IMG/VR virus record: IMGVR_UViG_3300026521_000571
Direction: 5' to 3' (one strand)
Length of the DNA stretch: 43,148 nt
DNA from: a virus
Taxonomy: Duplodnaviria; Heunggongvirae; Uroviricota; Caudoviricetes
Below, piece after piece: positions 6,012 to 31,478 of this stretch (position 1 is the first letter of the stretch; every line of letters begins with the position of its first letter). The translations under genes were made by a program, and so were the position numbers. The notes beneath the pieces were generated by a model, which saw only the letters and a program-made list of their open reading frames with translations, had not been told where the DNA came from and made no database searches.

Positions 6012-6026
6012 AATAAAAGGAAATAA

Positions 6027-6311
6027 ATGTTACAAAGGTATTATCGAAAAAATACAACGGCTGATGCGACCAGCACAATATTATCCTCAAAAAAAGGCAT
6101 TATGGTTAATGTTATAATATTTAATGAAAATGAAGATAAAAATAAAATTAGCTTGAAATCTAATCAAGGTATGATATTCTTTCAGAGGGTTCTCGAACCA
6201 TCTGAAACATATATGATTAAATTAGAAAGTTATGTTGATTCAGAAGAGTCTATTGAATTTTATAGTCAGTTGGAAGATGCTCATTGTAGTATAAATTTTC
6301 TAACAGCTTAA
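6027..6311 (+). CDS. Small hypothetical structural protein
   Basis: 94 aa, AAGGA RBS, beta-rich, between two structural genes. Confidence 0.65.
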   Translation: MLQRYYRKNTTADATSTILSSKKGIMVNVIIFNENEDKNKISLKSNQGMIFFQRVLEPSETYMIKLESYVDSEESIEFYSQLEDAHCSINFLTA

Positions 6312-6333
6312 TGCAATTAACATAGGAGAAAAT

Positions 6334-8286: not shown

Positions 8287-8308
8287 ATAAGTTTAAAAAG
8301 GAATTATT

Positions 8309-9271
8309 TTGAAAGAGCTTGTATTGTTACTCTCAACAAGTTGTAATGCTAACTGTTCATTTTGCACTCAAAATCATCTCGGTAATGATATGACTATCGA
8401 ACGATTTAAAGAAATATTATTTCAAAATCCATCATTGAGTTCTTTGGAACTCTTTGGTGGAGAACCTCTTATTAATTTTAAAGTAATTAAAAATATATTT
8501 GATAATAAAACAGATAAAGAATTAATAGATAGACTTAGTGGTATTGAAAATATAAAAATTACTACGAATGGTTTACTATTAACTCAAGAGATATATGAGT
8601 TCTTTGTCAACCTGAATAAAAAAATAAAAACAACCATTGTGATTTCATACGATGGGATTTTTCAAAATCAACGTGGATATCAATTACCAACTAGGGTTAA
8701 GGATATAATTAAAAATGACGCTGGGACTAATAAACTTATTCGCATAAGTTTTGGAGTATATAATCATCCTGATAAACTATTAGATCAGTATTTGGGGATT
8801 AAAGAAGAGTTCTCTTTAACTCCAAATAATATTGATTTTTATTTTAATAGAAATTATTATGAATATCCAAATGATATAATTACAAAATTTATGTTTGGTT
8901 TTATGAAATTTCTAATATACTTAGATACATTTAGATTACCATTACCAAATAGATTAAAAGAGTATCATATGAGAATCTTGGGTGATATTGGCCCTTCTAG
9001 AGGATGTGGTGCTGGAATTGATCGTTTCGCATTTACACCAACTTCTAAATTAAATTGTGGAGTTATAAATAACTCAGAAAATATTGATTTACCAACAGAA
9101 GTTGAATTTAATCAAATGTGCTCGGGTTGTTCAATAATTAACCAATGTCCTCGAAAATGTCCAGCGATGTTAAAACACGCGTATGATAATAATCTAAATC
9201 AGGATAATATTTTATGTGACATTCATAAAATAATTGTCTCTAGTATTAAAAAATATTACACAAAGGAATAA
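8309..9271 (+). CDS. Radical SAM protein with SPASM-like C-terminal Cys cluster
   Basis: CNANCSFC, GGEP, TTNG, then CGAG and CSGCSIINQCPRKCP; TTG start with AAGGA RBS. Confidence 0.9.
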   Translation: MKELVLLLSTSCNANCSFCTQNHLGNDMTIERFKEILFQNPSLSSLELFGGEPLINFKVIKNIFDNKTDKELIDRLSGIENIKITTNGLLLTQEIYEFFVNLNKKIKTTIVISYDGIFQNQRGYQLPTRVKDIIKNDAGTNKLIRISFGVYNHPDKLLDQYLGIKEEFSLTPNNIDFYFNRNYYEYPNDIITKFMFGFMKFLIYLDTFRLPLPNRLKEYHMRILGDIGPSRGCGAGIDRFAFTPTSKLNCGVINNSENIDLPTEVEFNQMCSGCSIINQCPRKCPAMLKHAYDNNLNQDNILCDIHKIIVSSIKKYYTKE

Positions 9272-9275
9272 TATA

Positions 9276-9575
9276 ATGGAAGACCAAATAAAAACATATA
9301 CTGAAATAATTAATGAAATTAGACAAAAAGATTTAAACGATGATGTTGTAGAGGAGTATGCCAATCTTGATCCTTTTATCACTAGAACACTGGTTGGTGA
9401 AAATTTATTAGAATCGAGTTTTGCGTTAAGAGATAAAGAACCTCAAATATCAAAAGTATTATTGACTCTTGGAACTTCATTTTTGGAATTGGCTAATAAA
9501 GAGATTAATGTTAAAGAGAAATTGCGGAAAGCAATATCGGATAACCCAGATCTTTTGAAATTAATAAAAGATTAA
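9276..9575 (+). CDS. Small helical hypothetical protein between two radical SAM genes
   Basis: Start reassigned to ATG 9276 (AAGGA at 9263-9267); 99 aa. Confidence 0.7.
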   Translation: MEDQIKTYTEIINEIRQKDLNDDVVEEYANLDPFITRTLVGENLLESSFALRDKEPQISKVLLTLGTSFLELANKEINVKEKLRKAISDNPDLLKLIKD

Positions 9576-9592
9576 TAAAAGATTAATAAAAG
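9560..9592 (+). repeat. 11-bp tandem repeat x3 (ATTAATAAAAG)
   Basis: Three exact units spanning the stop of the 9276 gene and the spacer before 9601. Confidence 0.85.
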
Positions 9593-9600
9593 GGTAGTTT

Positions 9601-10755
9601 ATGAAACCATTCAATTTGACACTTCAAGTTACTAAAAATTGTAATCTTCAATGCAAGTATTGTTATGAGCTCGGACACCATAGAAAAGAAATACCAAACT
9701 TAACTGAGTATTTGAGTGCTCTGGAACTCTTCTTAAAAATATTTAAAAAGCGCAATCAAAAAATAAATTTAATTTATATAGGTGGGGAGCCAAGCCTTAA
9801 TCCCGATTTCATAGAAAAAACGTTAAATGTTGTGTATTCAACTGGATTATTAAATTCAGTAAATATAATTACAAATGGTATTTTAATTAATAATATTATA
9901 AAAAGTATAGAGCAATCAAAAATACCAGAAGAGAGTGTTAAAGAACTCATTAGTATTCAAATTTCTTACGATGGTAAATTAATAAATGATAAATATAGAT
10001 TAGCTAATGGTAATCCGACATCAGATATAGTTCTTCGAAGTATAAAAAAAATCAAAGAGTTATGTTGGAACATAACTCTTAAAAGTGTTTTGCCAGTTAA
10101 TGAGATTCATTTGGTTCCTGAAATAATAGAAGAATTCATTGAACTTGGGTTTAAATACCAACCCACCGAAGATTTTTCATACCTCGAACATAAATTAAAA
10201 GAATCACTAACTATTGAAGAATATATTAAATATTTTGATGAGCATTTTATAAAAGTTCTTAATATTGAATTAGAAAGATTGGATAATAATTTGCAGCCTA
10301 TTTCAAGATGGTTTTTAGATTACAGTTTATCTAAAGGAATTTCTGAATGTCAAGCTGGAATTAATTCATTATCAATTAATGAAAGAGGAATGGTTCAATT
10401 TTGTCAACAGATAGATTATACTAAAATATTACCTAAAAATCAAAATGATTTTAATTTTTATAATATTTATGATTTGCCTTCAATGAGTCAGTTAGAAACC
10501 AACCTTAATAATATTTCAAATAATTTTAAATGCAATCTTATTGAGTCAAAAAGAACACAAGATTATGGATGTAATGATTGTAGTGCTTTATTCTGTGTTA
10601 AATGTCCTCTCATAAATTATAAATATTCAAATAGTACAAAAAATATGTACGGACAATATATCGACGAACCATTTCGATGTATTTATTATAAAAATCTTTC
10701 GAAATTTTTATACACTTATGATTTAATTAAAGATAAAGATAAAGATAAAGGATAG
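9601..10755 (+). CDS. Radical SAM/SPASM protein
   Basis: CNLQCKYC, GGEPS, ITNG, SYDG, CQAG...FC, CNDCSALFCVKCP. Confidence 0.92.
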   Translation: MKPFNLTLQVTKNCNLQCKYCYELGHHRKEIPNLTEYLSALELFLKIFKKRNQKINLIYIGGEPSLNPDFIEKTLNVVYSTGLLNSVNIITNGILINNIIKSIEQSKIPEESVKELISIQISYDGKLINDKYRLANGNPTSDIVLRSIKKIKELCWNITLKSVLPVNEIHLVPEIIEEFIELGFKYQPTEDFSYLEHKLKESLTIEEYIKYFDEHFIKVLNIELERLDNNLQPISRWFLDYSLSKGISECQAGINSLSINERGMVQFCQQIDYTKILPKNQNDFNFYNIYDLPSMSQLETNLNNISNNFKCNLIESKRTQDYGCNDCSALFCVKCPLINYKYSNSTKNMYGQYIDEPFRCIYYKNLSKFLYTYDLIKDKDKDKG

Positions 10756-10757
10756 AG

Positions 10758-11858
10758 ATGTCTTTAAAAGAATGGCATACCGTTTTAAAGCGAGGTGATA
10801 CATCTGGGTGTGATGTTGTGTGTTATCCAATAGTTACTAGAACATATCACTTACCTTATAAACCAGAAGGGCATAATGACGAAAATTTATTGGATATATA
10901 TGACAATGCTTCTCGAGATGAATTAATATCTAGCACACATATCCAAACATTACTTAGATTGGTAAAATATCACGCAAATGATAGATTATATCATACCGAA
11001 TTTGATTATCCAATTCCTCCTGAACCATCAAATGATAATGATGATCCAGGAGCAGAACCTATAAAAATTGATTCATATGATGGTAATAAAATTAAAATCC
11101 ATTTATTGAATGATGAAACCTACTGGGAAAGTGGTGATACGGATATAACTTATAAAACAACAGATGATGGTACAAAATTCGCTTGGGATTATGAAAATGA
11201 ATTGCCTAATGAAAAAGATAAATTTAGTTTAGTTGAATCAAGGAATCCAAATTATGTAATTTATGAGTATCGAGCGGATCCTGATAAATATGAAGATCCA
11301 TATATTTCGAAAATAGTTATTCCTGATCAACCTGGAGAGTTTACTGAGTATATTGAATTCAGTGAAGATGATGATGACGATGCAGAAGATTCAATGTATG
11401 CTTATAATAATCCTGAAGATGTTGAAATTCGAGGGGAGTATTTAATAAAATTATTCGGTACAAAACTCGGTACATACGAACTTCAAGCGTTCTCTAATCA
11501 ACGAACAGATATTGAATACAGTATTGATTTTTATATCACTTATGGTGATAAAGAAGATGAAGATGATGATGGTAATCCTAAAATTAAGACTGATAAAAAG
11601 ACTGTAAAATTTAAATACAATCCAGTAATAACGTCTACTTATATAATTAATGCTTCTTATCCAGATAGAGTTAAATCATATTTAAAACATCTTGGTACTT
11701 TATCAACTTTAAATTACGGTGATTTCAACTCTGGTGACTTAGTAAGATCGGATGATTTTCGTAATTTATTAGAGGCTGCCATTGAAATGAGTAGAGTATG
11801 TAATTGCGTAAGTAATTATACAGATGATTCACAAAATATATGTGATTGTAATTATTAA
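10758..11858 (+). CDS. Acidic protein with terminal Cys motifs; candidate radical SAM substrate/tail-associated protein
   Basis: N-terminal SGCDVVCYP and C-terminal RVCNCVSNYTDDSQNICDCNY; directly downstream of two SPASM enzymes. Confidence 0.65.
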   Translation: MSLKEWHTVLKRGDTSGCDVVCYPIVTRTYHLPYKPEGHNDENLLDIYDNASRDELISSTHIQTLLRLVKYHANDRLYHTEFDYPIPPEPSNDNDDPGAEPIKIDSYDGNKIKIHLLNDETYWESGDTDITYKTTDDGTKFAWDYENELPNEKDKFSLVESRNPNYVIYEYRADPDKYEDPYISKIVIPDQPGEFTEYIEFSEDDDDDAEDSMYAYNNPEDVEIRGEYLIKLFGTKLGTYELQAFSNQRTDIEYSIDFYITYGDKEDEDDDGNPKIKTDKKTVKFKYNPVITSTYIINASYPDRVKSYLKHLGTLSTLNYGDFNSGDLVRSDDFRNLLEAAIEMSRVCNCVSNYTDDSQNICDCNY

Positions 11859-11880
11859 TTCAAATGGAAAAGAGGAAAAA

Positions 11881-12486
11881 ATGATTGAGACAAGAAAACA
11901 ATATGCTATGCTTCAAAATATAGGAAGTGGATTTGCAATAAACACAATAGTTCATCTTGAACCTTCGAAAGCTCAGATGATTCATGATGATATTATTCAT
12001 CCAATTTCAGAACTTGCAGCCTATACTGTTAATCAAGCTAATTCCAAAAAGAAAATACTCGGTATAAAAAAAGAAGCATTATTAAATCCAGTAATAGAAA
12101 TTGATGACTTATATGAACCATTCGACACAATAAAAGAAATAGATCATAAAAAACACATAACTCTTAAAAAAATATATGCTTTTTTATTTCAGAACTTAAC
12201 TTCAAAAGAAATGCTTGCTTTATATGAATTCCAAATACTAAATACAAGATTTGCGAGCCTCGGTTATTTTATCACTCCAGAAAATAAACAAGATATTTAT
12301 TTAAAAATCATTGAGGAAGATAACGATGAACTCCTTGATGATCTTGAGATATATTTAGATGCCAAAATAATTCTTGATAATTTATATAAACTGTATCGTA
12401 AGATACGTAAAGCTGAGAATGATTTAGTATATGCCGAAACTGACGAAGAAATTCAAGAGATTTATGATAAATTTATACAATCATGA
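11881..12486 (+). CDS. Conserved-looking phage hypothetical protein that accompanies radical SAM/Cys-motif modules
   Basis: Start reassigned to ATG 11881 (GAGGA RBS). LNTRFASLGYFITPENKQDIYLKIIE motif recalled from phage radical SAM loci, not verified. Confidence 0.65.
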   Translation: MIETRKQYAMLQNIGSGFAINTIVHLEPSKAQMIHDDIIHPISELAAYTVNQANSKKKILGIKKEALLNPVIEIDDLYEPFDTIKEIDHKKHITLKKIYAFLFQNLTSKEMLALYEFQILNTRFASLGYFITPENKQDIYLKIIEEDNDELLDDLEIYLDAKIILDNLYKLYRKIRKAENDLVYAETDEEIQEIYDKFIQS

Positions 12487-13526
12487 TTAACCGTAAAATA
12501 GGACTTTTAGTCCCAAATAACTCTAATCGGTTAAGAGGCCAACATACTCTACCAAATAGATTATTTGACTTCTTAGAATATTCTAAGAGTTCCAGTCAAC
12601 TGGAACTCTTACCTATAAATAATTTTTATAAATTGATAAAACATAATTCAATTCAAGAAATTAATGATAACTATCTTGGTTTTATTAATTTCAAACGCAA
12701 TTACCTCTCCTTACCTGATAAACTCTCTCCTATATTATCTAAAAAATTAAATGTTATGTATTACACCAACGCAATAAGCTCAATTAATTATAAAGAGTTC
12801 CAATTAACTCTAAGTAATGGTTTTTTCTACGCTCTCAAATATAATTTAAATTGGTGGTGGTCGTTCTTTCCAATAAATTCGGAAGAGTTCCAGTCGACTG
12901 GAACTCTTCCGTCACCAAAAACTATAGGCTATTATTTTAGGCGAGAAGGTTATAATAAAGAGTTAATTAGAACTGAACTTGATTATTTAAAATCAATAAA
13001 TAATGACAAGAATATTAATATAATTGGGATTGGAGACAAAAGAGTATTTTTGGACACAATTAATTTAATTCCTAATTTAAAATCAAAGTTGATTTTTTTA
13101 GAAAATAAACCAAGTTCAATTTTAGACCTAATTAATTCTCTAAAAAATTCTGGTGGGAGATATAGTGCTTTAGAACTCATTGATGACTCAATCCCAAACA
13201 CCTATTTTGAAATGAGATGGAATAATATTCCTACCGAAATAATTAATTCTGGGTTTGAGTTCAAAAGAACTGGAATACCTTCTGGGATTGATGAAATTAA
13301 TTATTTATTTGAACACCCAGATCATAAAAAAATTATAGAAATTCTGGCTGACAATTTTTATTTAATCCTTGATAAAAATTTTAGGAAAGAGTTATTTTGG
13401 ACTCAAACTCAATTAAAAAATAATTTTTATAAAAATAAAAATATACAAAATATAAACTTCCGAGAATTGTTTTGGGAAGCGATCGATAGTACACTTAATT
13501 TAATTAAAAAATGGAAGGAAATATAA
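12483..13526 (+). CDS. Hypothetical protein, possibly glycosyltransferase-fold
   Basis: 347 aa, ATGA-coupled; weak GT-B-like pattern (KTIGYYFRR, NIIGIGD); carries two long palindromes. Confidence 0.5.
   Translation: MINRKIGLLVPNNSNRLRGQHTLPNRLFDFLEYSKSSSQLELLPINNFYKLIKHNSIQEINDNYLGFINFKRNYLSLPDKLSPILSKKLNVMYYTNAISSINYKEFQLTLSNGFFYALKYNLNWWWSFFPINSEEFQSTGTLPSPKTIGYYFRREGYNKELIRTELDYLKSINNDKNINIIGIGDKRVFLDTINLIPNLKSKLIFLENKPSSILDLINSLKNSGGRYSALELIDDSIPNTYFEMRWNNIPTEIINSGFEFKRTGIPSGIDEINYLFEHPDHKKIIEILADNFYLILDKNFRKELFWTQTQLKNNFYKNKNIQNINFRELFWEAIDSTLNLIKKWKEI
12584..12611. repeat. 28-bp near-perfect palindrome (GAGTTC-N10-GAACTC type)
   Basis: taagagttccagt-ca-actggaactctta. Confidence 0.9.
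12880..12911. repeat. 32-bp perfect palindrome (GAGTTC-N10-GAACTC type)
   Basis: cggaagagttccagtcgactggaactcttccg. Confidence 0.95.
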
Positions 13527-14512
13527 TGGGAAATGGGAAATCATCGAAAAGGATTTTAAATATGAAAAAAGGTCCGGTAGGACCTGGTATATTTAAAAAA
13601 TATGATTTAGTAATTACTTATCAAAAATCAAATATAGATTATAAAAGAATCAGTGGGCATTTCTTCGAGGCCTTTGATTATTTAGTACACTTGAAAACCA
13701 AAGATCCATCTAAAAATATAGCTATTTTAATACAAGATGATTTAGATTTAAATCAAATAAAAATAGCTTTCGAAGATAAATATCTAGAACCAGATTTTAC
13801 GATTGATGTTTTTATTGACTTCGGAATTAAAAATCTAATAGCTAAAAATATTCTTCATTGTAGTGGTCTAAGTAAAACAGATGAATGTAATTATATAGGA
13901 AATATTTTTTCATTTAGGTGCGGACTTGAGCCATTGGATGGTATAGAATATACATTACTTCAAGATAACCGCATTTATACAGAAGATTATGGGTTTTCGA
14001 CACCTGAATCTCCAAAGATAATAAATTATATAAAAAAAGTAGCCTTTGGAAATTACAGGACTCCAGAAAATAACAGTAATCCAAATAAAACTAGAATTTT
14101 AATTTATGATAATACTCGCTGTAGAGAATTAAATGAGCAACTTGAGTCCAAAATAACTGAAGTGCTAAAATTTAGAGAAAGAATAGATCCAGATGTTAAT
14201 TATGAATTAATTAAAGTTGGATCGGATATTAAATTACCAGTCAATAACTTTTTGGGACAGTTTGATGAGTATTGGTACACACCAACTAAAAATAATTTTG
14301 ATTGTAGTCCTCGATTAATTCTTGAATGTTTTTTATTTGGCATCCCAGTTAAATATTTATTAACTACAGAATACCTAGAAAAAGACCCAGGTCTTAAATT
14401 TAGAATTCTTGACTTGAATTTAAATTATAAAAAATTAATATTGGATGATTCTGACCCTATTTATGATATTATTTTTAATAATTCAAAGACCGGAGATAAT
14501 TATGCTTTTTAA
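13526..14512 (+). CDS. Hypothetical protein, glycosyltransferase-like (GT-B-like C-terminus)
   Basis: Start 13526 fits AAGGA at 13515-13519; FDEYWYTP...FDCSPRLILEC resembles the GT-B C-terminal motif; weak. Confidence 0.5.
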   Translation: MGNGKSSKRILNMKKGPVGPGIFKKYDLVITYQKSNIDYKRISGHFFEAFDYLVHLKTKDPSKNIAILIQDDLDLNQIKIAFEDKYLEPDFTIDVFIDFGIKNLIAKNILHCSGLSKTDECNYIGNIFSFRCGLEPLDGIEYTLLQDNRIYTEDYGFSTPESPKIINYIKKVAFGNYRTPENNSNPNKTRILIYDNTRCRELNEQLESKITEVLKFRERIDPDVNYELIKVGSDIKLPVNNFLGQFDEYWYTPTKNNFDCSPRLILECFLFGIPVKYLLTTEYLEKDPGLKFRILDLNLNYKKLILDDSDPIYDIIFNNSKTGDNYAF

Positions 14513-15569
14513 TAATGAGTTCAGTGAACACCATAATTTATATAATAAAATTACTAAAAGTCGTGAAGAAGATGAAATTCATGATCTTGATATAAATTTT
14601 GAAAATATTACGAGAAAAGTTAAATTAGATGTTGGTAAAAAATGCAACGCCGGTTGTTTTTTCTGTTATTATAAATCAGAGCTCAACTCCCCGATGAAGA
14701 CATTAGGTGTTCTTAAAAAAGAAATTGATCTTATGAAATCGATGCGATTTGAAGAAATAGAATTAAGTGGAGGTGAGCCGACGATTCACCCAGATTTTAT
14801 TGAAATAATTAAATATATCGATTCAATTGGATTAAAAGCATCATTTGTCACAAACGCTTTTGAATTAAATTTAAATGTTCTAAAAGAACTCAAACCATAT
14901 CTAAATGATATTTTAATTAGTATTCAAGGATATCAAGAAAATCACAATAAGATACTTAGACTTCCGGAGGCCTACAATAATATTTTAGAAGTAATTGATG
15001 CTTGTAATAATTTAGACATTCCAGTTAGAATTAACACAACGGTTCATAAAAATAATATAGATAATTTATTATATATTTACGAGGATATTAAATCCAAAGT
15101 AAGAACCTGGAATTTAATTCCTATTAATTATTGGGATGATGCCAGAAAGTTAAAGAGGGAAATGCCTTATGAAAAAATATCAGAAGTTCTAGAAAAAATT
15201 TATGAAAGAGTTATGAATTCAGTCGCGACTGAATTCATAACTGGAGTTGGTCAAAAATCAACTCCAGTTATGTTGCAACATAACTCTAATCAATTAAATT
15301 TAAATATTAGATATTATCCTCTTTGTAAAATAGATCCGAAGTATAAACACTTCGTCAAAAATTATTGGCATCAATATTATGATAAAGAAGACTGGCATCC
15401 TTTTTTTATGGATACAAAAGATTTAATTTCTCATAAACAGGAATGCTTTATTCAAGAAGTTAAATCATGTTATATAAGAGATCTTCTCCAAAAGAGAAAA
15501 CCTTATTATAAAGACAAAGCTTGTCTTAACTGTCCTGATTTTATAATTTGTGATGGATATAAGCCATGA
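14502..15569 (+). CDS. Radical SAM protein with C-terminal Cys motif
   Basis: CNAGCFFC, LSGGEPTIHP, VTNA, CLNCPDFIICDG; start 14502 follows GGAG. Confidence 0.9.
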   Translation: MLFNNEFSEHHNLYNKITKSREEDEIHDLDINFENITRKVKLDVGKKCNAGCFFCYYKSELNSPMKTLGVLKKEIDLMKSMRFEEIELSGGEPTIHPDFIEIIKYIDSIGLKASFVTNAFELNLNVLKELKPYLNDILISIQGYQENHNKILRLPEAYNNILEVIDACNNLDIPVRINTTVHKNNIDNLLYIYEDIKSKVRTWNLIPINYWDDARKLKREMPYEKISEVLEKIYERVMNSVATEFITGVGQKSTPVMLQHNSNQLNLNIRYYPLCKIDPKYKHFVKNYWHQYYDKEDWHPFFMDTKDLISHKQECFIQEVKSCYIRDLLQKRKPYYKDKACLNCPDFIICDGYKP

Positions 15570-16258
15570 TTTATATACTAATTCCGAGCACTAGAGGTAT
15601 GGATTACCTTGGAAGATTATTAAAATCACTCAATAAAATAAAAATACCAAAAAATATTTTTATTATTAGAAATGTTTCAAAAGAACTCATTCCGGATAAT
15701 TTTTACCAAAAGTTCAAAGAGACACTCGGGACGGACGATTCTTTAAAAATAAAAACCATTCCTAAAGATACAAACCCAAATAAAAATAACTTGGGTTTGG
15801 TTTATAAAGAACTCTTTGATTCAGTACCAAAAGATAATTATTTTTTATTTCTCGAAGATGATGATTATATTTATAATGAATTAACAATGAGTGATTTTAA
15901 ACTCATTGAAGATAAAAAATTAGTCTTGTGGTTTTATAAATCAGAAATAAATAATCCGGATGTATTAAACTGGATGCGGGCTGTACGATATTTTGAAAAA
16001 CACAAAGATATTAAATATATATCAGAAGATTTTAGTAAAAATAGTTTTCAAATCTCATGTTTTATGGCTAAAAAGATACAAACTCTCGATAACTTCATCT
16101 GGGATAATAATTTAGAAAATGACTATAAATTATTTCAGGAGCATTTGAGTTCTTTTGAACTCAAAGATATTTTAATTTTAAAAAAGATTATGTTTGTGCA
16201 GGGGATAGGGGATAATATTAGCTTCCCAAAATATAATAAGGATTTAAGATGGCAATAA
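15566..16258 (+). CDS. Glycosyltransferase family 2-like protein
   Basis: N-terminal YILIPST strand and YFLFLEDDDY (DxD) motif. Confidence 0.65.
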   Translation: MIYILIPSTRGMDYLGRLLKSLNKIKIPKNIFIIRNVSKELIPDNFYQKFKETLGTDDSLKIKTIPKDTNPNKNNLGLVYKELFDSVPKDNYFLFLEDDDYIYNELTMSDFKLIEDKKLVLWFYKSEINNPDVLNWMRAVRYFEKHKDIKYISEDFSKNSFQISCFMAKKIQTLDNFIWDNNLENDYKLFQEHLSSFELKDILILKKIMFVQGIGDNISFPKYNKDLRWQ

Positions 16259-17211
16259 TATTCGAAGGGGTTGATCATAAAGTTCAAAGGCTTTATATAC
16301 ACTGGGATATAACTACAGTTTGTAATTTTGATTGTAGTTATTGCTATGCTAAAAAAGAGTACAGTCAAAAAGAACTCTGGTTAAAAGAAGATACCGTTGA
16401 AAATATAAAAACAGTTATAAAGGCTATTTCTATAAGCACATTACCTGTGTTTTTAGGATTACTTGGAGGAGAACCAACTCTTTCAAAACATTTCGAATTT
16501 ATTTTAAATGAGTTCAAAAGAACTCATTTCTTTGAAAAAGAAGATAATAAATTATATATTACTACGAATGGAAGTAAGGAACTATGTTGGTTTATAAACC
16601 AACATAGTTCCGATTTTTATAATAATAAAGTTATGTGGTTATTTTCTTGGCATTCGGCGCATATGTCTGGTAATTCAAATAAAGAATTTAAAGAAAAAAT
16701 AGAAGTTCTTTTGGGGAAGGGTTATAAGGTTAAAGTTAATCTTATGATACCTTTGACTAAAGAAAAGTGGGCTGACTTAAAGGAACTCTCTTTAGAGTTA
16801 ATTAAATTGCAGAAAAATTTTACCAGCCTTATTTTACACCCTCATTTTATATACAAGAATGAACACCAAATATATGAATACCCAAAAGATACAAAAACTT
16901 ATTTTAAAGAAATTTTTGAAAATATCCCAAAAGAGTTCCAAATGACTCAAATGACTCAAAAGACACTTTTAAACGACATTGAAATATTTGAGACAGGTCT
17001 TAATAATTTCAAGGGTTGGGATTGTTATTTAAATAACTATGAGATTAATCTAGGTGCAATTGTATCTAAATTTTGTGTTCAAGAAACAACCAATCTTAAA
17101 AATAATATAACGTTCTTTAAAAAAATAAAAAAAGTGGTTCCAGTTATTTGTGAACATAGTCAATGTTCATGTGATGGACTCTTAAAAATACGAAAAGAAA
17201 AGGAAATATAG
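16249..17211 (+). CDS. Radical SAM protein
   Basis: CNFDCSYC, LGGEPT, ITTNGS, C-terminal CEHSQCSCD. Confidence 0.9.
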   Translation: MAIIFEGVDHKVQRLYIHWDITTVCNFDCSYCYAKKEYSQKELWLKEDTVENIKTVIKAISISTLPVFLGLLGGEPTLSKHFEFILNEFKRTHFFEKEDNKLYITTNGSKELCWFINQHSSDFYNNKVMWLFSWHSAHMSGNSNKEFKEKIEVLLGKGYKVKVNLMIPLTKEKWADLKELSLELIKLQKNFTSLILHPHFIYKNEHQIYEYPKDTKTYFKEIFENIPKEFQMTQMTQKTLLNDIEIFETGLNNFKGWDCYLNNYEINLGAIVSKFCVQETTNLKNNITFFKKIKKVVPVICEHSQCSCDGLLKIRKEKEI

Positions 17212-17213
17212 AA

Positions 17214-17942
17214 ATGCCTGATAAAATAATAGTAGACTATATAAATTTTTTTTCAAAAAAAGATTATATTGAATTCACTGCCCCAGAATTTTCATCATTT
17301 GATAATTTCAATCTTAAAATAGATACAATTGCAGATTTATTTTTATTGTACTTAAAAGATTTAAAAGAGTTCATTAGCACTCAACATATAGAATATATTT
17401 ATGAAGAAATGATTCCGTGGTTTTATTTTAATAAAACATTTGATAAAATTCATTTAAGAAAACCACGGAACTCAAAAGATTATTCTGATACTATAAAAAT
17501 AGAATCTGTTTTAGAATATATTGAGTTATGTTCCAACAGCAACATTATTAATTATTTTTTACTTGAATATATATTTTTAATTTATTCTGGAGTCATAGAT
17601 CATGATTCATTTAATAATTTTAAAGTAATCGATGATAAAAACATTAATGATTTTTTTATAGAAGTGTATAAAAAAATAGGTATTGATAATAAATATTCAT
17701 CGGAGATAATTACTCAAGAAGATTTAGATATAATTGGTATGTTGAAACCGACATCATTTCAACTAAACACACAATTAGATTATTTTATGATGCATAAAAA
17801 GTTACTTTTGAAACTAAAACTACAAAATAAAAAAGAGGTATTGGATCAGTTAGCTTTCGACCGAGATAAACTCAAAGATATTTTAAATGCAATTGATATT
17901 AAAAATCCAATATCTTTTATAGAGATTATAAAAGAATTATAA
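17214..17942 (+). CDS. Hypothetical protein
   Basis: 242 aa ORF tightly packed in the operon; no recognised motif. Confidence 0.6.
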   Translation: MPDKIIVDYINFFSKKDYIEFTAPEFSSFDNFNLKIDTIADLFLLYLKDLKEFISTQHIEYIYEEMIPWFYFNKTFDKIHLRKPRNSKDYSDTIKIESVLEYIELCSNSNIINYFLLEYIFLIYSGVIDHDSFNNFKVIDDKNINDFFIEVYKKIGIDNKYSSEIITQEDLDIIGMLKPTSFQLNTQLDYFMMHKKLLLKLKLQNKKEVLDQLAFDRDKLKDILNAIDIKNPISFIEIIKEL

Positions 17943-18790
17943 TGATTATTGAAATCAAATTAACGCATTACTGTAATTTAAATTGTAGTTATTGTGTATC
18001 TATGCACTCATCAGATAAAACATTATGTGAGAAAGAGCAATTTGATTTAGAAGGATTTATTAACTTTCTGGATGAGTTCCAGTGCACTGGAACTCATCCA
18101 CGATTTAAAGAAATTAAATTCTTTATTTTTGGTGGAGAACCTTCAACAAGCAAAGATTTAATTCCTCTTGTTAATTATCTAAATAAACTGGTTGATTCAA
18201 ATAATATAATTATACAAACCAACCTCACCAATTTAAGTACTCTTAAAAAAATCAATTGCCTTATCAATATAAGTTGGCATCCGGAATTTATATCATTTAA
18301 AGAATTAATTAATAGGTTAAATAAACTACCTCAAGAAAGAATTAACGAAATAGCCTTTATGGATGTCGATGATAAATATTATAAATATTATAATATACTC
18401 AAAAAACTTTATAAAGTTGAATTTTGTCCAATTATAGAGGATATTGTACATTATGATGGACGTTGGTTGAAAAGATTAAAAGAACTTAAAAATAAAGATA
18501 TTTTTAAAGTAATCCAAAACGACGAACATTTTCATAAATTTAAATCAAATAAAAGTAATTACGATTATTGGGTTAACGAAGAGCATTCTATAGGAAAGAA
18601 ATGTTTTATAAATTACGAAGTATTATTTATTTCAAATAATAAAGTTTATGAATGTTTTAATGATATGTTTTTTAATATCAATGGAATTAATCTTAGAGAT
18701 TATGAGTACATTCCAAAAATTAAAATATGTCCTCATCAGAGATGTTTTTTTGACATGAGATATCAGGAAGAAAATTATGAAAAAAACTAG
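17942..18790 (+). CDS. Radical SAM protein
   Basis: CNLNCSYC, FGGEPS, QTN, C-terminal CPHQRCFFD. Confidence 0.9.
   Translation: MIIEIKLTHYCNLNCSYCVSMHSSDKTLCEKEQFDLEGFINFLDEFQCTGTHPRFKEIKFFIFGGEPSTSKDLIPLVNYLNKLVDSNNIIIQTNLTNLSTLKKINCLINISWHPEFISFKELINRLNKLPQERINEIAFMDVDDKYYKYYNILKKLYKVEFCPIIEDIVHYDGRWLKRLKELKNKDIFKVIQNDEHFHKFKSNKSNYDYWVNEEHSIGKKCFINYEVLFISNNKVYECFNDMFFNINGINLRDYEYIPKIKICPHQRCFFDMRYQEENYEKN
18069..18100. repeat. 32-bp perfect palindrome (GAGTTC-N10-GAACTC type)
   Basis: tggatgagttccagtgcactggaactcatcca. Confidence 0.95.
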
Positions 18791-19583
18791 TTGTGTTCAT
18801 AAGAACTATTATTTTAATTATAAAATAACATTTATGTGTAATCAAAATTGTAGTTATTGTTATGAAAAAAAAGATAACCCAGATATATGGAACAATTATT
18901 ATTTGCCTTTTAGATTAATTCAAAAAGAAATTCAATTATTTAAAATGATTGAATTTCCATGTTGGATTGAATTACTTGGTGGAGAGCCTTTGACACATAG
19001 ATATTTCAAAGAAATATTGACACTCATGGTAATTGAGTTGACCATGCACTCAATTTCAATCAGCACTAATGCAACTGCAAGAAATATTGAAAAAATGAAA
19101 ATTCCTCAAGAAATTCTAAATAAAGTTTTCTGGATGTTGTCATGGCATGAAGGCATTACTAATTTTAATAAATTCAAAGAAAATTGTGAATATCTTCTTA
19201 AAAATAATTGCCAAATGCAGGTAAATATTATGACAAAATCTCCCAATAAAGAATTTTTGACGTGGATTGAAAAACAGGATTTAACTATAAAATTTTTGGA
19301 TATTTGGGATCCTTTTGCACCATCAGAAGAAATTAAAAAAATAATGCCAACAGATGCACCAAAATATGGAGAACCTTGTAAATATTTATACAATGAAATT
19401 TTTATTGATCGTTCTATGGTGACCGCAGCTGAATGTGTTTTACCAAAAACCCCAATAAAATTTGATAAAGAATTTGTGAAAAATTTGGAACCTTATAAAA
19501 ATAAGACATGTCCAATATTAACTGGATGTAATGTACCAAACGCTGATTTATGTACACCAAATGAAAATGCGACCATAATATGA
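18777..19583 (+). CDS. Radical SAM protein
   Basis: CNQNCSYC, LGGEPL, ISTN, C-terminal Cys residues. Confidence 0.9.
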   Translation: MKKTSCVHKNYYFNYKITFMCNQNCSYCYEKKDNPDIWNNYYLPFRLIQKEIQLFKMIEFPCWIELLGGEPLTHRYFKEILTLMVIELTMHSISISTNATARNIEKMKIPQEILNKVFWMLSWHEGITNFNKFKENCEYLLKNNCQMQVNIMTKSPNKEFLTWIEKQDLTIKFLDIWDPFAPSEEIKKIMPTDAPKYGEPCKYLYNEIFIDRSMVTAAECVLPKTPIKFDKEFVKNLEPYKNKTCPILTGCNVPNADLCTPNENATII

Positions 19584-20377
19584 AAGAAAATTGTATAATT
19601 CTAGCGTTGGATAATAATCCAGAAGAACCAGACTACCATAAAATGATATTTTTATTAATACATAGTGTTCGAATGTTTGATCAAGATATAGATATTCATA
19701 TTTTAATAGGATCTGATAGAGTTCCGACGCACACAATCAACTTATTAAAAAATTTAAAAAAGATTTTTATCTATCATAATGAGTTCCAAAGCATTCAAAG
19801 AATAAGATATTTTTTAAGAAATTATTGTATAAAATATTTTTCATACGACCAAAACCTCTTAAAAAAGTATAATCAACTCATATATATTGATATCGATGTA
19901 ATATTGATAGATAAACCTTCTTGGCCTATTTTAAATCCAAATGAGATCATTGTTGAAAAAGTACCTGATGAAATAATTAAAATTGAAAATAATATTCTTC
20001 GAAAGAATATAAATAACAGTAAACCAGTCTATTATAACTGGTTCACTATTGTAACAGATTCAAACAGATTTATATGGAATATTGATTATGTATCAGTTAC
20101 AGTTCTTAAAGACTCAGATATTGAAATTTCAAGAAGAATAAATAAATCAAGTTTAAAAATAATTGATCAGACTATCGGAGCTTATTATCCAAAACATAAG
20201 CTCCATAAAGGCACTTTTTTATTTCATTATGATGGATTTATAGATAGTGGGTATTTCTATAAATTAAAAGAATTTAGTCCAAAATTGTATTCAAAGCTAA
20301 ATAAAATTCTTAAAATATATAATATTAAAGATAACTCAGTAGAAAATTATTGGGAGAATATAAAGGAATTAGAGTGA
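19580..20377 (+). CDS. Glycosyltransferase, GT-A (GT8-like)
   Basis: YNQLIYIDIDVIL DxD motif and late FHYDG. Confidence 0.65.
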   Translation: MKENCIILALDNNPEEPDYHKMIFLLIHSVRMFDQDIDIHILIGSDRVPTHTINLLKNLKKIFIYHNEFQSIQRIRYFLRNYCIKYFSYDQNLLKKYNQLIYIDIDVILIDKPSWPILNPNEIIVEKVPDEIIKIENNILRKNINNSKPVYYNWFTIVTDSNRFIWNIDYVSVTVLKDSDIEISRRINKSSLKIIDQTIGAYYPKHKLHKGTFLFHYDGFIDSGYFYKLKEFSPKLYSKLNKILKIYNIKDNSVENYWENIKELE

Positions 20378-21309
20378 GTAATATGTTTAATAATCGATTT
20401 AGTTTCCCATTTCGAGTGGATATTGAAATGAATTTCGAATGGTTTCAAAAGCACTCGAGTTTAATAAAAGAAATTTATATATCCCCAGATATATTTAATA
20501 TCAATATGAATCCAATGAATGGAAAAGAGAATTTTAAATATAATTTACCGGAGTATATTAAATTCTTTAATGATTTAAAATCAATCGATATTGGAGTATG
20601 TCTGGTTATAAATAATATATTTAACCCTCCTGATTTAAATACAATAAAACGATTAATTAAAAAATACGATTTTATAACATCAGTTGTAGTTCCAGATCAC
20701 TCCTGGTTAAGTCTAAAAGAACTCAACATCGAAATAAAAAATACTGTTATCATGAATCCATCTTTCGATGATATTTTATTAGGAAAATATAATGATTTTG
20801 ATATTATATATATCCATGATGATATAATACATAATAAAAATAAGTACAAAGAGTTAAAAAGAACTGGGCTGAAATTTGGAACAGTTGTTAACTATTCAGA
20901 TTGCTGCACTTTCTGTAATAAAAAACAAGAGCATTATAAATTAATCAATAATAAAAAATACAATTATAACACTTTCTGTCCTACCAAAATGTGGTCCCAG
21001 CACGAACTTCTAATGAAAAGGAATTCTATTCCAACCATTAGATCGGAATATCAATATTATTTAGATACTATTGATATTTTTAAATTACAAGGGAGAGGGG
21101 TCACTGAGACATTTAATTCAGCAATTAATATAATCGAAGGTATTTCATCAAATCAAAATATATTTACGGAAGAATATTTTAATTTAATTAGATTCTTAGG
21201 TAATGATTATAAAGAATGGGTTCATGAAGTTCGAAATTGTGGAGGAAATTGTCTCAAGTGTAATTTTTGTGATAATATTATAAAAAAGAGGTTAGATGGA
21301 AGACAATAA
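20374..21309 (+). CDS. Peptidase U32-like Fe-S protein
   Basis: VVNYSDCCTFC, FCPTK, IDIFKLQGR (cf. U32 LKIEGR), CGGNCLKCNFCD; GTG start in GTGA overlap, AAGGA RBS. Confidence 0.7.
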   Translation: MSNMFNNRFSFPFRVDIEMNFEWFQKHSSLIKEIYISPDIFNINMNPMNGKENFKYNLPEYIKFFNDLKSIDIGVCLVINNIFNPPDLNTIKRLIKKYDFITSVVVPDHSWLSLKELNIEIKNTVIMNPSFDDILLGKYNDFDIIYIHDDIIHNKNKYKELKRTGLKFGTVVNYSDCCTFCNKKQEHYKLINNKKYNYNTFCPTKMWSQHELLMKRNSIPTIRSEYQYYLDTIDIFKLQGRGVTETFNSAINIIEGISSNQNIFTEEYFNLIRFLGNDYKEWVHEVRNCGGNCLKCNFCDNIIKKRLDGRQ

Positions 21310-22354
21310 AATCGAAAGTCTTTTTGATTTATATATCAAAAAAGACAAAGACAAAGCAGATACTAGTTTTATAAATTTTATTCAGAATGATTTTACTAGA
21401 AAAGATTTCGAGTATTTAAAAGCACAAGAATATAATAATAAACTGGTTATTGAGTTTAAACCAACTGATAATTGTAATTTTAATTGTAGTTATTGTTGTT
21501 TTCATAATAAAAAATCGAAGGGAATGTCGGAATTGACTTTTAAAAACTTCATTAATTTTTTAGAATACAATATTGAAAATAATATATTTCCACAAGAAGA
21601 GTTTTTTATTTTTATTTACGGTGGTGAACCAACAATGCACCCCAACTTAACTAAATTTATTATTGAATTAAATGAGTTCAAAAGAACTCATAATAAAAAA
21701 ATAAATTTCTTGATACAAAGTAACGGGAGCATGTGGTCTCTTACTAAATTTAAAAAAGAAATAAACATTTTAAAAAATGCCAATGTTAATTTTAAATTCA
21801 GCTTTAGTTACCATCCAGAAGAAGTAAAATTAAATGATTTAATTCCAAAAATTAAATATTTAATTTCTGAGGATGCTTTCGATGTATTAACGTATATGTT
21901 GACCATTTCAAATATTAAGAAAGATATACATATGATAAATTTCTTTGAATCAGCTAATGTTCCTATTTATGTACGTACGATTTTACAAGAGTCTGAGTTA
22001 TTTAATTCAGATGGTAAATTCAAGAAATATAAAAAATATATATCAACAGATAAAGATGATGATTCTTATATTTTAACGACTAAAGATGCAAATAATAAGA
22101 TTATAAATACTAAGATGTCTTTCGAAGACTTATCAACCCAAGGTTATTTGAATTTTAATGGTTATAATTGCAGTGCTGGTATTAATAGCTTTTTAATTTC
22201 TCCTGAAGGTGAAATATATCGTTGTGATATGGATTATTTATATAAAAAAAATAGGCTACATGATGTTAATTCAGTTCAAGAATATAAACCATCTAAATGT
22301 TTAAAATGTACTCATACTTTTTGTAGTATATATTTTAGCGACAAATGGAAATAA
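21296..22354 (+). CDS. Radical SAM protein with twitch/SPASM-like C-terminus
   Basis: CNFNCSYC, YGGEPT, SNGS, CSAG...ISPEGEIYRC, CLKCTHTFC. Confidence 0.92.
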   Translation: MEDNKIESLFDLYIKKDKDKADTSFINFIQNDFTRKDFEYLKAQEYNNKLVIEFKPTDNCNFNCSYCCFHNKKSKGMSELTFKNFINFLEYNIENNIFPQEEFFIFIYGGEPTMHPNLTKFIIELNEFKRTHNKKINFLIQSNGSMWSLTKFKKEINILKNANVNFKFSFSYHPEEVKLNDLIPKIKYLISEDAFDVLTYMLTISNIKKDIHMINFFESANVPIYVRTILQESELFNSDGKFKKYKKYISTDKDDDSYILTTKDANNKIINTKMSFEDLSTQGYLNFNGYNCSAGINSFLISPEGEIYRCDMDYLYKKNRLHDVNSVQEYKPSKCLKCTHTFCSIYFSDKWK

Positions 22355-29260: not shown

Positions 29261-29292
29261 CTTCAATTCCTTTAAAAATAAATTACAATTAA

Positions 29293-31455: not shown

Positions 31456-31478
31456 AGTTGAATAAAACGGAGTAGATT

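Follow-up and report, generated by a model that had tools for sequence, protein, structure and literature searches.

The closest precedent for the locus described here is the CrpC/CrpA pair of Methanococcus voltae, in which CrpC, a SPASM radical SAM (rSAM) enzyme, puts ranthionine thioethers into the C-terminal repeats of CrpA; the biological role of the pair is unknown, metal binding is suspected, and phages go unmentioned in that paper (PMC13692751, 2026). As in the phage module, the gene of the SPASM enzyme adjoins that of a cysteine-repeat protein and not that of a short peptide, but CrpC/CrpA is archaeal and cellular, whereas the phage module is viral and linked to a fibre. Compared by description, CrpC carries an N-terminal RRE, whereas the two phage enzymes considered below, rSAM1 and rSAM2, lack one and begin at their CX3CX2C motif; the repeats of CrpA, ten in number and 17 residues long, contain C-x-x-Q/D, whereas the phage proteins have C-x-C-x-C-x-Y heptads. 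Two peptide systems, PapB/PapA (freyrasin) and CteB/CteA (SCIFF), provide the matches that rank highest for rSAM1 and rSAM2 among curated models and solved structures; both systems combine three-cluster SPASM enzymes with a C-terminal core that is rich in cysteine and has Asp/Asn/Thr acceptors close to these residues. PapB joins Cys to the carbon beside a carboxylate, the C-terminal one included (PMC12373016). The substrates of these systems are short leader-core peptides, whereas the phage candidate is a 366-residue fibre-type protein, and the phage module differs further in having no RRE and in adding a dedicated 201-aa helper.

Larger targets are also on record. In quinohemoprotein amine dehydrogenase, as summarised in the CrpC/CrpA paper, the SPASM enzyme QhpD makes Cys-to-Asp/Glu thioethers in the subunit QhpC, which is kept in the larger assembly (PMC13692751); unlike the phage candidate, this target is an enzyme subunit without repeats and not a fibre. 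The original prediction for this locus had set a full-length protein as substrate against the short peptides of known systems; such a substrate has precedents in QhpD/QhpC, anSME and CrpC/CrpA (PMC13692751). The CXXX-repeat maturase family (NCBIfam TIGR04115) is likewise defined by a cysteine-repeat target, in a C-x-x-x register as opposed to the C-x-C-x-C-x-Y of the phage family. The phage side of the comparison is the endosialidase-type fibres and spikes, whose C-terminal intramolecular chaperone, Peptidase_S74, directly follows the last heptad in relatives of the protein studied here. We know of no report of S74 fibres with cysteine heptads or rSAM partners; a literature search found none, nor any paper describing such an rSAM/Cys-fibre module in phages.

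The window, by which we mean the whole 43,148-nucleotide stretch of DNA analysed, derives from an uncultured, T4-like phage in which two rSAM enzyme genes adjoin the gene of a fibre-type protein that ends in a short, cysteine-bearing tail (Table 1). The gene order is fibre-like protein, rSAM/SPASM enzyme, 99-aa protein, rSAM/SPASM enzyme, 366-aa protein ending CNCVSNYTDDSQNICDCNY, and 201-aa protein, all on the + strand, closely spaced and preceded by AAAGGA/AAGAGG-type ribosome-binding sites. All six open reading frames are present as predicted, and the cysteine motifs quoted for the 366-aa protein, N-terminal GCDVVC and the C-terminal 19 residues, are exact. The prediction had counted two rSAM genes; both are real, but they head a consecutive series of seven (8309-22354), the five downstream members starting at 14445, 16249, 17942, 18777 and 21296 (PF04055) and sharing this island with GT-A-like ORFs at 15566-16258 and 19580-20377.

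Table 1. Positions of the module and its surroundings in the window.
Feature	Position	Strand	Evidence
Fibre-like protein, 650 aa	6334..8286	+	phrog_19602 'tail fiber protein', E 1e-8
rSAM1, radical SAM/SPASM enzyme, 320 aa, TTG start	8309..9271	+	PF04055, 36 bits
99-aa acidic protein without cysteine, between the two enzymes	9276..9575	+	
rSAM2, radical SAM/SPASM enzyme, 384 aa	9601..10755	+	PF04055, 49 bits
Cys-tailed fibre-type protein, 366 aa	10758..11858	+	relatives P0002 and P0003; hhalign to heptad family
N-terminal C-x3-C motif (GCDVVC) of the 366-aa protein	10809..10823	+	kept in all three relatives
C-terminal tail CNCVSNY-TDDSQ-NICDCNY of the 366-aa protein	11799..11855	+	read from sequence
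Helper, 201 aa	11881..12486	+	homologues 3' of Cys proteins in 35 loci
p347	12483..13526	+	homologue in L002
p333	13511..14512	+	homologues in 14 loci and Campylobacter phage CP220
Island continuation: five more rSAM genes, glycosyltransferase-like and unknown genes	14445..22354	+	PF04055

Both enzymes possess, besides the CX3CX2C motif, seven further cysteines in the SPASM pattern, even though the Pfam SPASM model matched neither at E<=0.1. In rSAM1 the CX3CX2C motif occupies residues 12-19 and the SPASM cysteines are C233, C250, a CX2CX5CX3C of canonical spacing at 271-284, and C303; across an alignment of five sequences these seven are kept in all five and the CX3CX2C cysteines in four. The SPASM cysteines of rSAM2 are C250, C268, CX2CX4CX2C at 324-335 and C360, and its ten cysteines do not vary across 41 sequences, which fall into 17 clusters at 50% identity and have a median identity of 23%. 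This gene, directly 5' of the Cys-protein gene, encodes the conserved core enzyme. The best solved match of rSAM1 is the SCIFF thioether synthase CteB (5wgg, E 6e-7), and the best curated model for rSAM2 is PapB (NF047865, 5-325 of 330 positions aligned). In agreement with the predicted kinship, both look most like thioether-forming SPASM maturases, but they miss the cut-offs of all the curated maturase families widely: 68 and 47 bits for the two enzymes against the PapB model (cut-off 340), 38 and 40 bits against SCIFF (425), 44.6 bits for rSAM2 against the CXXX-repeat maturase TIGR04115 (E 1.3e-11, cut-off 350) and 34 bits for rSAM1 against QhpD (453). Among the rSAM proteins of the island, rSAM1 and rSAM2 look most like PapB and CteB, whereas rSAM3 resembles viperin/MoaA/NirJ-type enzymes and not peptide maturases. 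A search of the module for a leader-like, RRE-type recognition partner found none.

The 366-aa protein consists of a conserved N-terminal part, a variable, beta-rich middle and a conserved C-terminal stretch of 82 residues. It is 58% identical to its relative P0002, with 56-67% identity over residues 1-150, 29-34% over 151-250 and 89% over 285-366, whereas in P0003 the ends alone are conserved; compared with the nearest relative, the C-terminal 82 codons show 30 synonymous but only 9 non-synonymous changes, which points to selection on this block. All six of its cysteines, an N-terminal CxxxC and a C-terminal CxC...CxC, are conserved, and the four in the tail are invariant in three relatives together with both NY pairs. 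This tail reads as two degenerate C-x-C-x-C-x-Y heptads, CNCVSNY and NICDCNY, the ORF stopping directly after the second NY. The C-terminal part aligns with a heptad family by hhalign (probability 94%, E 1.5e-7), which places the protein, as a minimal and divergent member with two units, in a fibre-type family that is widespread in phages; the AF2 model was unusable (pLDDT 38.6). Because members of this family carry Peptidase_S74, the chaperone of trimeric phage fibres, it is plausible that the Cys protein is a virion fibre, as the predicted association with the tail would have it. S74 is absent from the window protein, which ends where S74-bearing relatives would be cut.

At the C-terminal end, family members have a helix and, after it, (C-x-C-x-C-x-Y)n heptads, among them CTCNCNY (118 copies) and CTCDCNY (63 copies); the heptads often lead directly into the S74 chaperone. 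Of 43 distinct family proteins, 24 have SDxRLK immediately after the last heptad, and the three examples tested all passed the Pfam Peptidase_S74 cut-off of 22 (28-34 bits). Members without the S74 tail end in ...CNCNY or ...CNYS, and the window protein in ...CDCNY. An independent retrieval from IMG/VR, using a DNA pattern for CNCNYCxC, yielded 110 loci, comprising 53 real heptad-protein loci and 57 chance matches. Of the 53 real loci, 42 contain between one and eight rSAM ORFs, without exception on the same strand and with a median gap of 370 bp; none of the chance-match loci, which have equal mean length, contains any (Fisher p = 1.7e-20, with partly non-independent loci: 43 distinct tails, 17 enzyme clusters).

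Many of the retrieved loci are also collinear with the window, with homologues in the window's order of rSAM2 (44 loci), the helper (35), rSAM1 (20) and the C-terminal domain of the fibre-like protein (13). L001 and L002 conserve rSAM2, the Cys protein and the helper, and L005 and L006 show the same order at 28-29% enzyme identity with tails richer in cysteine; overall, the arrangement persists down to 23-29% enzyme identity. Synteny, on which the original prediction had staked itself, therefore holds, the order of enzyme, Cys protein and 201-aa helper recurring in many divergent phage contigs. Judged from these comparisons, the gene arrangement is beyond chance, and the window appears to hold a stripped-down form of a gene set present in many phages.

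The remaining genes of the module are conserved to different degrees. The 650-aa fibre-like protein at its head has a coiled-coil middle and a C-terminal 'SAKYADLAEFY' domain, whose homologues open the same module in the 13 loci; the homologue in L023 scores 24.9 bits for Peptidase_G2 IMC, against a cut-off of 25. The 99-aa and 201-aa proteins had been proposed as recognition or chaperone subunits. The latter is a steady companion of the Cys proteins, lying directly downstream of them, and is predicted to fold into an N-terminal alpha/beta part and a C-terminal helical bundle (AF2 mean pLDDT 89.6), but a fold search gave no RRE/PqqD-like or other informative match, and Pfam assigned it to no family. 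The 99-aa protein has no detectable relatives outside its close lineage (L001 and L004, 62% identity); proteins of about 100 residues at the same position in L005, L019, L070 and L091 show no detectable homology to it (hhalign probability 1%) and are positional analogues only.

The explanation that we favour, at about even chances, is that the phage cross-links the tail of a fibre-type protein by means of rSAM enzymes. The 366-aa protein would be the substrate of the two adjacent enzymes, a relation roughly as probable as not; once translated, and no later than the assembly of the trimer, it would be modified by 5'-deoxyadenosyl radical chemistry that converts the tail cysteines into covalent cross-links. 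The likeliest products would be ranthionine-like thioethers that join cysteine to a carbon of an adjacent Asn, Asp, Thr or Tyr, although we put this chemistry forward tentatively; the N-terminal CxxxC cysteines may also be modified. The result would be a rigid fibre end, resistant to reduction, and the 201-aa protein might serve as a dedicated assembly or recognition factor; both this helper role and the virion location of the Cys protein we infer. The window tail has only four cysteines, and far less cross-linking would therefore be possible than in typical members. Comparative genomics, the basis of this reading, partly supports the RiPP-like modification originally predicted; if true, phages chemically staple part of the particle's fibre.

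Several points weigh against cross-linking. One is that a cysteine ladder in a trimer could just bind metal: C-x-C units of three chains would line the trimer core as a metal or Fe-S needle, with the rSAM enzymes making or inserting the cofactor or catalysing something unrelated. His-x-His motifs bind iron in the tip of T4 gp37. In the heptad family, cysteines occupy alternate positions of a seven-residue repeat, and therefore would all face the same side of a beta strand, directly before a triple-beta-helix chaperone; the six conserved cysteines of the window protein, its only ones, fit a metal site, and L023 has, between its rSAM genes, an ORF resembling A-type Fe-S carriers. This alternative, however, leaves unexplained why two to three SPASM-type enzymes of the same family are fixed beside the Cys proteins across the 17 divergent enzyme clusters, and SPASM enzymes closest to CteB and PapB act on peptide cysteines. 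We consider metal binding in place of cross-linking unlikely, and the two can coexist.

Another is that the island's other rSAM and glycosyltransferase-like genes could have small-molecule substrates. It is quite improbable, but conceivable, that rSAM1 and rSAM2 join these genes in making some small molecule, modified sugar or nucleotide derivative, and that the Cys protein merely sits in the same late-gene block. The seven rSAM genes, the GT-A-like ORFs and p333 do form a single-strand run, the stretch 14445..22354 is collinear as a block with L107, L111, L050, L034 and L007, and rSAM3 is of the viperin/MoaA/NirJ type; moreover, rSAM arrays in CP220 (11 rSAM proteins) and a marine T4-like genome have been known since 2010 and 2017 without known function (PMC2853527, PMC5332604). 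Yet many loci consist of a short module of two to three rSAM2-like genes, the Cys protein and the helper, with the rest of the island unrecognisable inside the locus (L019, L022, L023, L062, L090 and L091 are examples), and in CP220, where the island parts are scattered, the rSAM2-type gp136 stays 2.2 kb from the heptad protein gp140. It is also rSAM1 and rSAM2 that are the PapB/CteB-like members. An island product of this kind might afterwards end up bound to the fibre or to structures of the host.

That the Cys protein or a fragment acts outside the particle, for example as a toxin, signal or metal/redox buffer like bacterial ranthipeptides, would suit enzymes of RiPP-maturase type but is very improbable, since a search of the module turned up neither a protease or exporter nor a cleavage site of leader type, relatives contain the S74 fibre chaperone as a fused domain, a fibre-type gene opens the module in 13 loci, and 366 residues with a variable, beta-rich middle resemble a receptor-binding protein.

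The sole cultured carriers are Campylobacter phages of the genus Firehammervirus (CP220, CPt10), AT-rich phages of the T4-like kind that have about 11 rSAM genes. They share with the window homologues of rSAM2, the helper and the p333-rSAM3 pair (in CP220, gp184 adjoining the rSAM protein gp183), as well as a protein with seven-residue cysteine repeats (gp140); unlike in the window, these parts are dispersed over the genome, at 21-32% identity to their window counterparts. The CP220 authors proposed that the rSAM proteins boost the metabolism of the host, and drew no connection between these enzymes and gp140 (PMC2853527). The virion-gel legend of that paper lists 11 proteins and equates CPT_0186 with gp48 (PMC2853527).

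The module under study, made up of a fibre-like gene, radical SAM (rSAM) genes, a 366-aa Cys protein and a 201-aa helper, is placed between the portal and prohead protease genes of the window, which is itself part of a 107-kb AT-rich T4-like phage contig (GC 25-31%). The module genes share one strand and are closely packed; a terminator/promoter scan of 6000-15000 identified no intergenic plus-strand terminator inside the module, and promoter-like sites occurred at chance level. The ORF coordinates and tails bear out the gene content and order of the original prediction. The radical SAM "pair" that it described (rSAM1 and rSAM2) is present, but these two genes belong to a row of seven radical SAM genes that runs up to 22354. 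The match of the 650-aa fibre-like protein to its PHROG family covers residues 329-615, with no Pfam match for the same protein, and its homologue in the IMG/VR locus L023 reaches 24.9 bits with the Peptidase_G2 IMC model (cut-off 25). The C-terminal domain of this protein, which carries a YADLAE motif, recurs as the module's opening gene in other loci.

Positions of features in the window and, where a locus handle (L) is given, in the IMG/VR loci compared with it
Feature	Position	Strand	Remarks
gp20-type portal	376-2595		
650-aa fibre-like protein	6334-8286	+	PHROG tail-fibre family phrog_19602, E 1e-8
rSAM1	8309-9271	+	
99-aa protein	9276-9575	+	
rSAM2	9601-10755	+	
366-aa Cys protein	10758-11858	+	N-terminal GCDVVC, C-terminal tail CNCVSNYTDDSQNICDCNY
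201-aa helper	11881-12486	+	
GT-A-like ORF	15566-16258		EDDDY motif
GT-A-like ORF	19580-20377		weak GT8 match
gp21-type prohead protease	40086-40883		
gp23-type capsid protein	40976-42589		
QIEEAKKGKAKVDSKYV-core small protein	L006 10190-10360, L023 3252-3515, L062 2679-2945, L111 8068-8364, L012 7224-7550		
QIEEAKKGKAKVDSKYV-core small protein, further loci	L034 3150-3440, L050 10723-11013, L028 5689-5895, L007 6786-7163		
Stub-bearing heptad loci	L034 4685-7282, L050 7389-9455, L025, L070, L080, L090, L091 and others		

Both rSAM1 and rSAM2 are members of the radical SAM superfamily (PF04055, 36.2 and 49.4 bits, respectively; cut-off 29.5), with the CX3CX2C cluster motif at residues 12-19 and 14-21. 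Since both enzymes start at this motif, neither could accommodate an N-terminal RRE, the PqqD-like domain, fused or separate, by which canonical RiPP systems recognise a leader peptide. Their assignment to the SPASM class was borne out by seven further C-terminal cysteines in the pattern C-x(9-15)-G-x4-C ... CX2CX5CX3C ... C, namely C233, C250, C271-x2-C274-x5-C280-x3-C284 and C303 in rSAM1, and C250-x17-C268 (with GMVQFC), C324-x2-C327-x4-C332-x2-C335 and C360 in rSAM2, where the central spacing is one residue shorter at two places. Neither enzyme matches the Pfam SPASM model PF13186 at E<=0.1. All ten cysteines of rSAM2 are invariant across 41 distinct homologues, whose median pairwise identity is only 23%; at a 50% identity threshold they fall into 17 clusters.

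Of the NCBIfam models, both enzymes score best with that of the PapB ranthipeptide maturase (NF047865), which, its SPASM part included, aligns with rSAM2 over positions 5-325 of 330; the SCIFF, CcpM, Cys-every-fifth and CXXX-repeat maturases rank after it, all far under their curated cut-offs. Membership was rejected for the PapB family (68.1 bits for rSAM2 and 46.8 for rSAM1; cut-off 340), for the SCIFF maturases (TIGR03974, CteB; 38.4 and 40.4 bits for the two enzymes; cut-off 425) and for the CXXX-repeat target maturases (TIGR04115; rSAM2 44.6 bits; cut-off 350), whose target repeat is C-x-x-x, whereas the tail of the window's Cys protein has a C-x-C and not a C-x3 register. The best solved relative of both is the SCIFF thioether synthase CteB (5wgg), the match spanning the rSAM core only. 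The SPASM cysteines, the NCBIfam ranking and CteB as best solved relative together argue that rSAM1 and rSAM2 are SPASM enzymes of the peptide-cysteine-modifying kind that lie outside all curated families.

Distant homologues of rSAM2 (28-29% identity) sit in modules built like that of the window. Locus L005 encodes an rSAM enzyme, a 119-aa helical protein, another rSAM enzyme, a 180-aa protein that has 16 cysteines and ends CHCDCHYS, and a homologue of the helper; L006 holds a small protein with the C-terminal domain of the fibre gene, three rSAM genes and, at the contig end, a protein ending ...VCLCNCNYCTCN. When IMG/VR was scanned with a DNA pattern encoding CNCNYCxC, 110 loci were obtained, 53 of which encode real proteins that share one build: a helix G..I.A..hN.Lh..hN.AG, then C-x-C-x-C-x-Y heptads, among them CTCNCNY (118 copies) and CTCDCNY (63). 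As defined here, members of this heptad family carry at the C-terminal end the helix 'G..I.A..hN.Lh..hN' and then C-x-C-x-C-x-Y heptads. The remaining 57 loci, chance matches in short ORFs with an equal mean locus length, served as the control set.

An HMM built from the N-terminal halves of the rSAM sequences gathered in this analysis detected rSAM ORFs (1-8 each) in 42 of the 53 real loci versus 0 of the 57 control loci (Fisher p 1.7e-20), the pattern loci being non-independent samples with 43 distinct tails and 17 enzyme clusters. All of these ORFs lie on the same strand as the Cys protein, with a median gap of 370 bp, and most of the 11 real loci without one are only 1-3 kb long or are cut off close to the Cys gene, which then sits at the edge. 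Among the pattern loci, BLASTP with the window proteins identified homologues of rSAM2 (44), the helper (35), rSAM1 (20) and the fibre C-terminal domain (13); the downstream p333 (a 333-aa protein), rSAM3, rSAM4, rSAM5 and rSAM7 have homologues in 13-24 loci. In L019, L070 and L091 the run of fibre-domain protein, rSAM1, ~100-aa protein, rSAM2, Cys protein and helper reproduces the window order, and L107, L111, L050, L034 and L007 are collinear with the window through rSAM4 and further. The core of this order, with an rSAM2-type enzyme directly upstream and a helper-type protein directly downstream of the Cys protein, is found in the window and in L005, L007, L019, L022, L023, L034, L050, L062, L070, L091, L107 and L111. 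The arrangement of the original prediction is thus conserved across phages, both in the rSAM genes at the heptad loci and in the matching gene order. Several heptad loci carry 2-4 tandem paralogues.

The window's own Cys protein has two relatives among 1.84 billion representatives (profile search), in both of which its six cysteines are all conserved. The first, P0002, is 58% identical, with complete synteny from the portal onward; the second, P0003, resembles it only in the N-terminal part (G-x-C-x3-C-[YW]-P-[IV]-V-T-R...P-Y-K-P) and over the final 82 residues, and its gene is flanked by an rSAM2 homologue and by homologues of the 201-aa and 347-aa proteins. Compared with P0002, residues 1-150 are 56-67% identical, residues 151-250 are 29-34% identical and the final 82 are 89% identical; in this final block 30 codon differences are synonymous and 9 non-synonymous; this profile and the synonymous excess point to a protein with constrained ends and a fast-evolving middle. 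In hhalign, the window stretch ...GDLVRSDDFRNLLEAAIEMSRVCNCVSNY aligned with the family helix and first heptad over 61 columns (probability 94%, E 1.5e-7), pairing CNCVSNY of the window with CxCNCNY of the family. Read in this register, the tail is made up of CNCVSNY and NICDCNY, both degenerate heptads, with TDDSQ as the linker; each has lost one of three cysteines and kept the final NY. The Cys protein therefore has the helix and heptads of the family, with only two degenerate units, and no heptad-type motif is present in any other ORF of the window. Its N-terminal 110 residues show no significant likeness to the family N-termini (hhalign at best 9.8%). An AF2 model was unusable (pLDDT 38.6, two-row alignment), and the ESM Atlas returned low-TM noise only. 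Against 50,697 phage records we found no match for the Cys protein and helper (tblastn), for the module (megablast) or for the L005 and L006 Cys proteins (tblastn), and the IMG/VR related-locus search with the Cys protein and rSAM2 as single queries returned nothing; an alignment of five tails offered no stretch of sufficient conservation for such a search.

Peptidase_S74 is the intramolecular chaperone, able to cleave itself off, of trimeric fibres of the endosialidase type. In 24 of the 43 distinct family proteins, SDxRLK... follows directly after the last heptad and continues as a full ~70-residue domain or a 12-residue stub; three full-domain examples pass the Peptidase_S74 Pfam threshold. 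Once cut at the conserved serine, the mature protein would end ...CNCNY(S), and members without this tail end ...CNCNY or ...CNYS, with 4 of 43 ending at NY or NYS, as does the window's ...CDCNY. The S74-type tail is frequent in the family without being universal, and it is absent from the window's Cys protein, whose ORF stops at ...CDCNY. The S74 domain after the heptads, the ends of the tail-less members and the fibre-domain gene that opens the module argue that the heptad family is fibre-type, and the window system itself would appear to be one in which SPASM cysteine-modifying maturases are tied to phage fibre-type proteins. The 12-residue stub (SDERLKTNIxYL-type), conserved directly after the last CNCNY in many heptad proteins, may be a cleavable tag or a chaperone remnant.

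The helper is a real, conserved companion of the Cys proteins, with 26 distinct homologues aligned and 14 further clusters, all unnamed, in a large database. In its confident AF2 model (pLDDT 89.6), a small alpha/beta part at the N-terminus precedes a C-terminal helical bundle. Foldseek against the PDB gave nothing below E 0.001, VIA-align only generic three-helix-bundle matches (Z<=9.2), and the BFVD matches were weak and to uncharacterised phage proteins, three DUF4376 rows (E 0.03-0.13) among them; none of the three yielded a PqqD-like match, and the model is not recognisably that of an RRE. Because these fold matches are weak or generic and Pfam scans of the 26 homologues found no shared family, a fibre-assembly role, or identity as a tail-fibre chaperone (DUF4376), is a lead only. 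Complex prediction that paired the helper (26-row alignment) with the Cys protein's final 82 residues (3 rows) gave no answer (score 0.02, mark 0.32) and counts for neither side. The 99-aa protein has relatives in the closest contig only, and hhalign against positional analogues of similar size elsewhere gave a probability of 1%. Thus, of the two small proteins put forward as recognition or chaperone subunits, the 201-aa one stands as a conserved companion with no RRE-like match, and the 99-aa one is not widely conserved. In many loci a different conserved small protein, with the core QIEEAKKGKAKVDSKYV...GHLFDY.FDY..FL, lies between the rSAM genes; the window lacks it and has the unrelated 99-aa protein at that spot.

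From the observed gene facts, cysteine patterns, tail homology, synteny statistics and S74 link we infer what chemistry rSAM1 and rSAM2 would perform on the Cys protein. One or both enzymes would cross-link the tail cysteines covalently, with thioethers as the most likely product; the N-terminal CxxxC may be modified too, and the helper would act in recognition or assembly. We put the chances that the Cys protein is a substrate of rSAM1 and/or rSAM2 at about even. The RiPP-like modification of a virion protein originally proposed is partly supported, by the fibre-type family, the SPASM enzymes and the synteny, and its chemistry stays conditional. An unlikely reading of the same conserved cysteines is that they form a metal-binding core and that the rSAM enzymes do something else. 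Somewhat less probable again is that rSAM1 and rSAM2, for all their ranking beside peptide maturases, serve small-molecule or glycan chemistry of the larger rSAM island downstream. A non-structural RiPP-like product is improbable: no protease or exporter that would release a short product was recognised by Pfam or PHROGs within 3150-25484, where several ORFs are without any family.

Tentatively, we propose that RiPP-type rSAM/SPASM enzymes covalently staple a structural protein of the phages' own particle fibres, and that the window holds a minimal natural substrate with exactly two enzymes: a tail of 19 residues with two C-x-C...NY units, plus the N-terminal CxxxC. If so, this would be the first thioether cross-link of a virion known to be installed by an enzyme, and radical SAM cross-linking, described to date for peptide antibiotics, one enzyme subunit (QhpC) and, since 2026, one archaeal protein (CrpA), would extend to virion proteins. 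Stapling would also give a function to the multi-rSAM arrays reported without explanation for Campylobacter phages (from 2010) and marine T4-like genomes (from 2017), and would give phages a further means, besides disulfides and metal sites, of hardening host-recognition structures, with a bearing on fibre engineering and host-range work. The recognition rule and cross-link chemistry would be directly solvable by mass spectrometry in the window system. Its short, non-repetitive tail, with only six cysteines, is far easier to express and to map by this method than long heptad arrays.

Among isolates, only the Campylobacter Firehammervirus phages carry parts of the system, and with these cultured phages the proposal could be examined in actual particles. 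The CP220 protein gp140 contains six repeats of 21 bp (7 residues), with the rSAM2-type gp136 located 2.2 kb downstream; gp184-gp183 correspond to p333 and rSAM3, and a helper homologue is elsewhere in the genome. The tag CPT_0186 was rejected as the CP220 heptad protein, as it denotes gp48. Eleven rSAM proteins were reported for CP220, with support of host metabolism suggested (PMC2853527), and 12 rSAM genes for a marine T4-like genome (PMC5332604); neither paper connects these enzymes with a cysteine-repeat protein, and our literature search for a pairing of phage radical SAM enzymes with a cysteine-repeat or fibre protein found no description. The nearest experimental precedent is CrpC/CrpA, in which a SPASM enzyme installs ranthionine links on a methanogen cysteine-repeat protein (PMC13692751). 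The strictly C-terminal position of the phage Cys tails is of interest because PapB joins cysteine to the carbon adjoining a carboxylate, the peptide's C-terminal one included (PMC12373016).

The five further radical SAM genes (starts 14445, 16249, 17942, 18777 and 21296) lie within 14445-22354, where they alternate with GT-A-like or unclassified ORFs. This whole block is collinear with L107, L111, L050, L034 and L007, and rSAM4 is the best conserved (38% identity). The pair formed by p333 and the following rSAM3 (13511-15569) is kept in 14 loci and is also present in CP220 (L003 13986-15763; 32% identity). A 319-aa protein inside the island (20350-21309; phrog_1458), with CCTFC and CGGNCLKCNFC motifs and no homologue in the fetched loci, is possibly another Fe-S protein. 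Among the rSAM genes of L023, a 109-aa ORF (3520-3846, minus strand) carries the A-type Fe-S carrier (IscA/ErpA-like) motifs GGGCSGF...GSCGCG, in agreement with the Fe-S assembly genes of rSAM-rich T4-like phages (PMC5332604).

Elsewhere in the window, sugar-tailoring genes lie near the rSAM island (30172-32171): first an NAD-dependent sugar epimerase/dehydratase that bears a C-terminal Ig-like domain, then a PIG-L-type de-N-acetylase. The head genes of T4 are compact, whereas here ~37 kb of accessory genes separate the portal from the prohead protease and major capsid genes (40086-42589). A ClpB/Hsp104-type double AAA+ protein of 882 aa (26618-29266, minus strand) lies in a stretch whose higher GC (34-40% versus 25-31%) suggests a separately acquired segment. 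In a SNF2-family helicase of 1002 aa (37046-40054), a Hint/intein-type insert (Hom_end_hint, residues 392-434) splits the ATPase domain. Finally, long perfect hairpins occur within coding sequence at 12880-12911 (14-bp stem) and 10055-10080 (11-bp stem).
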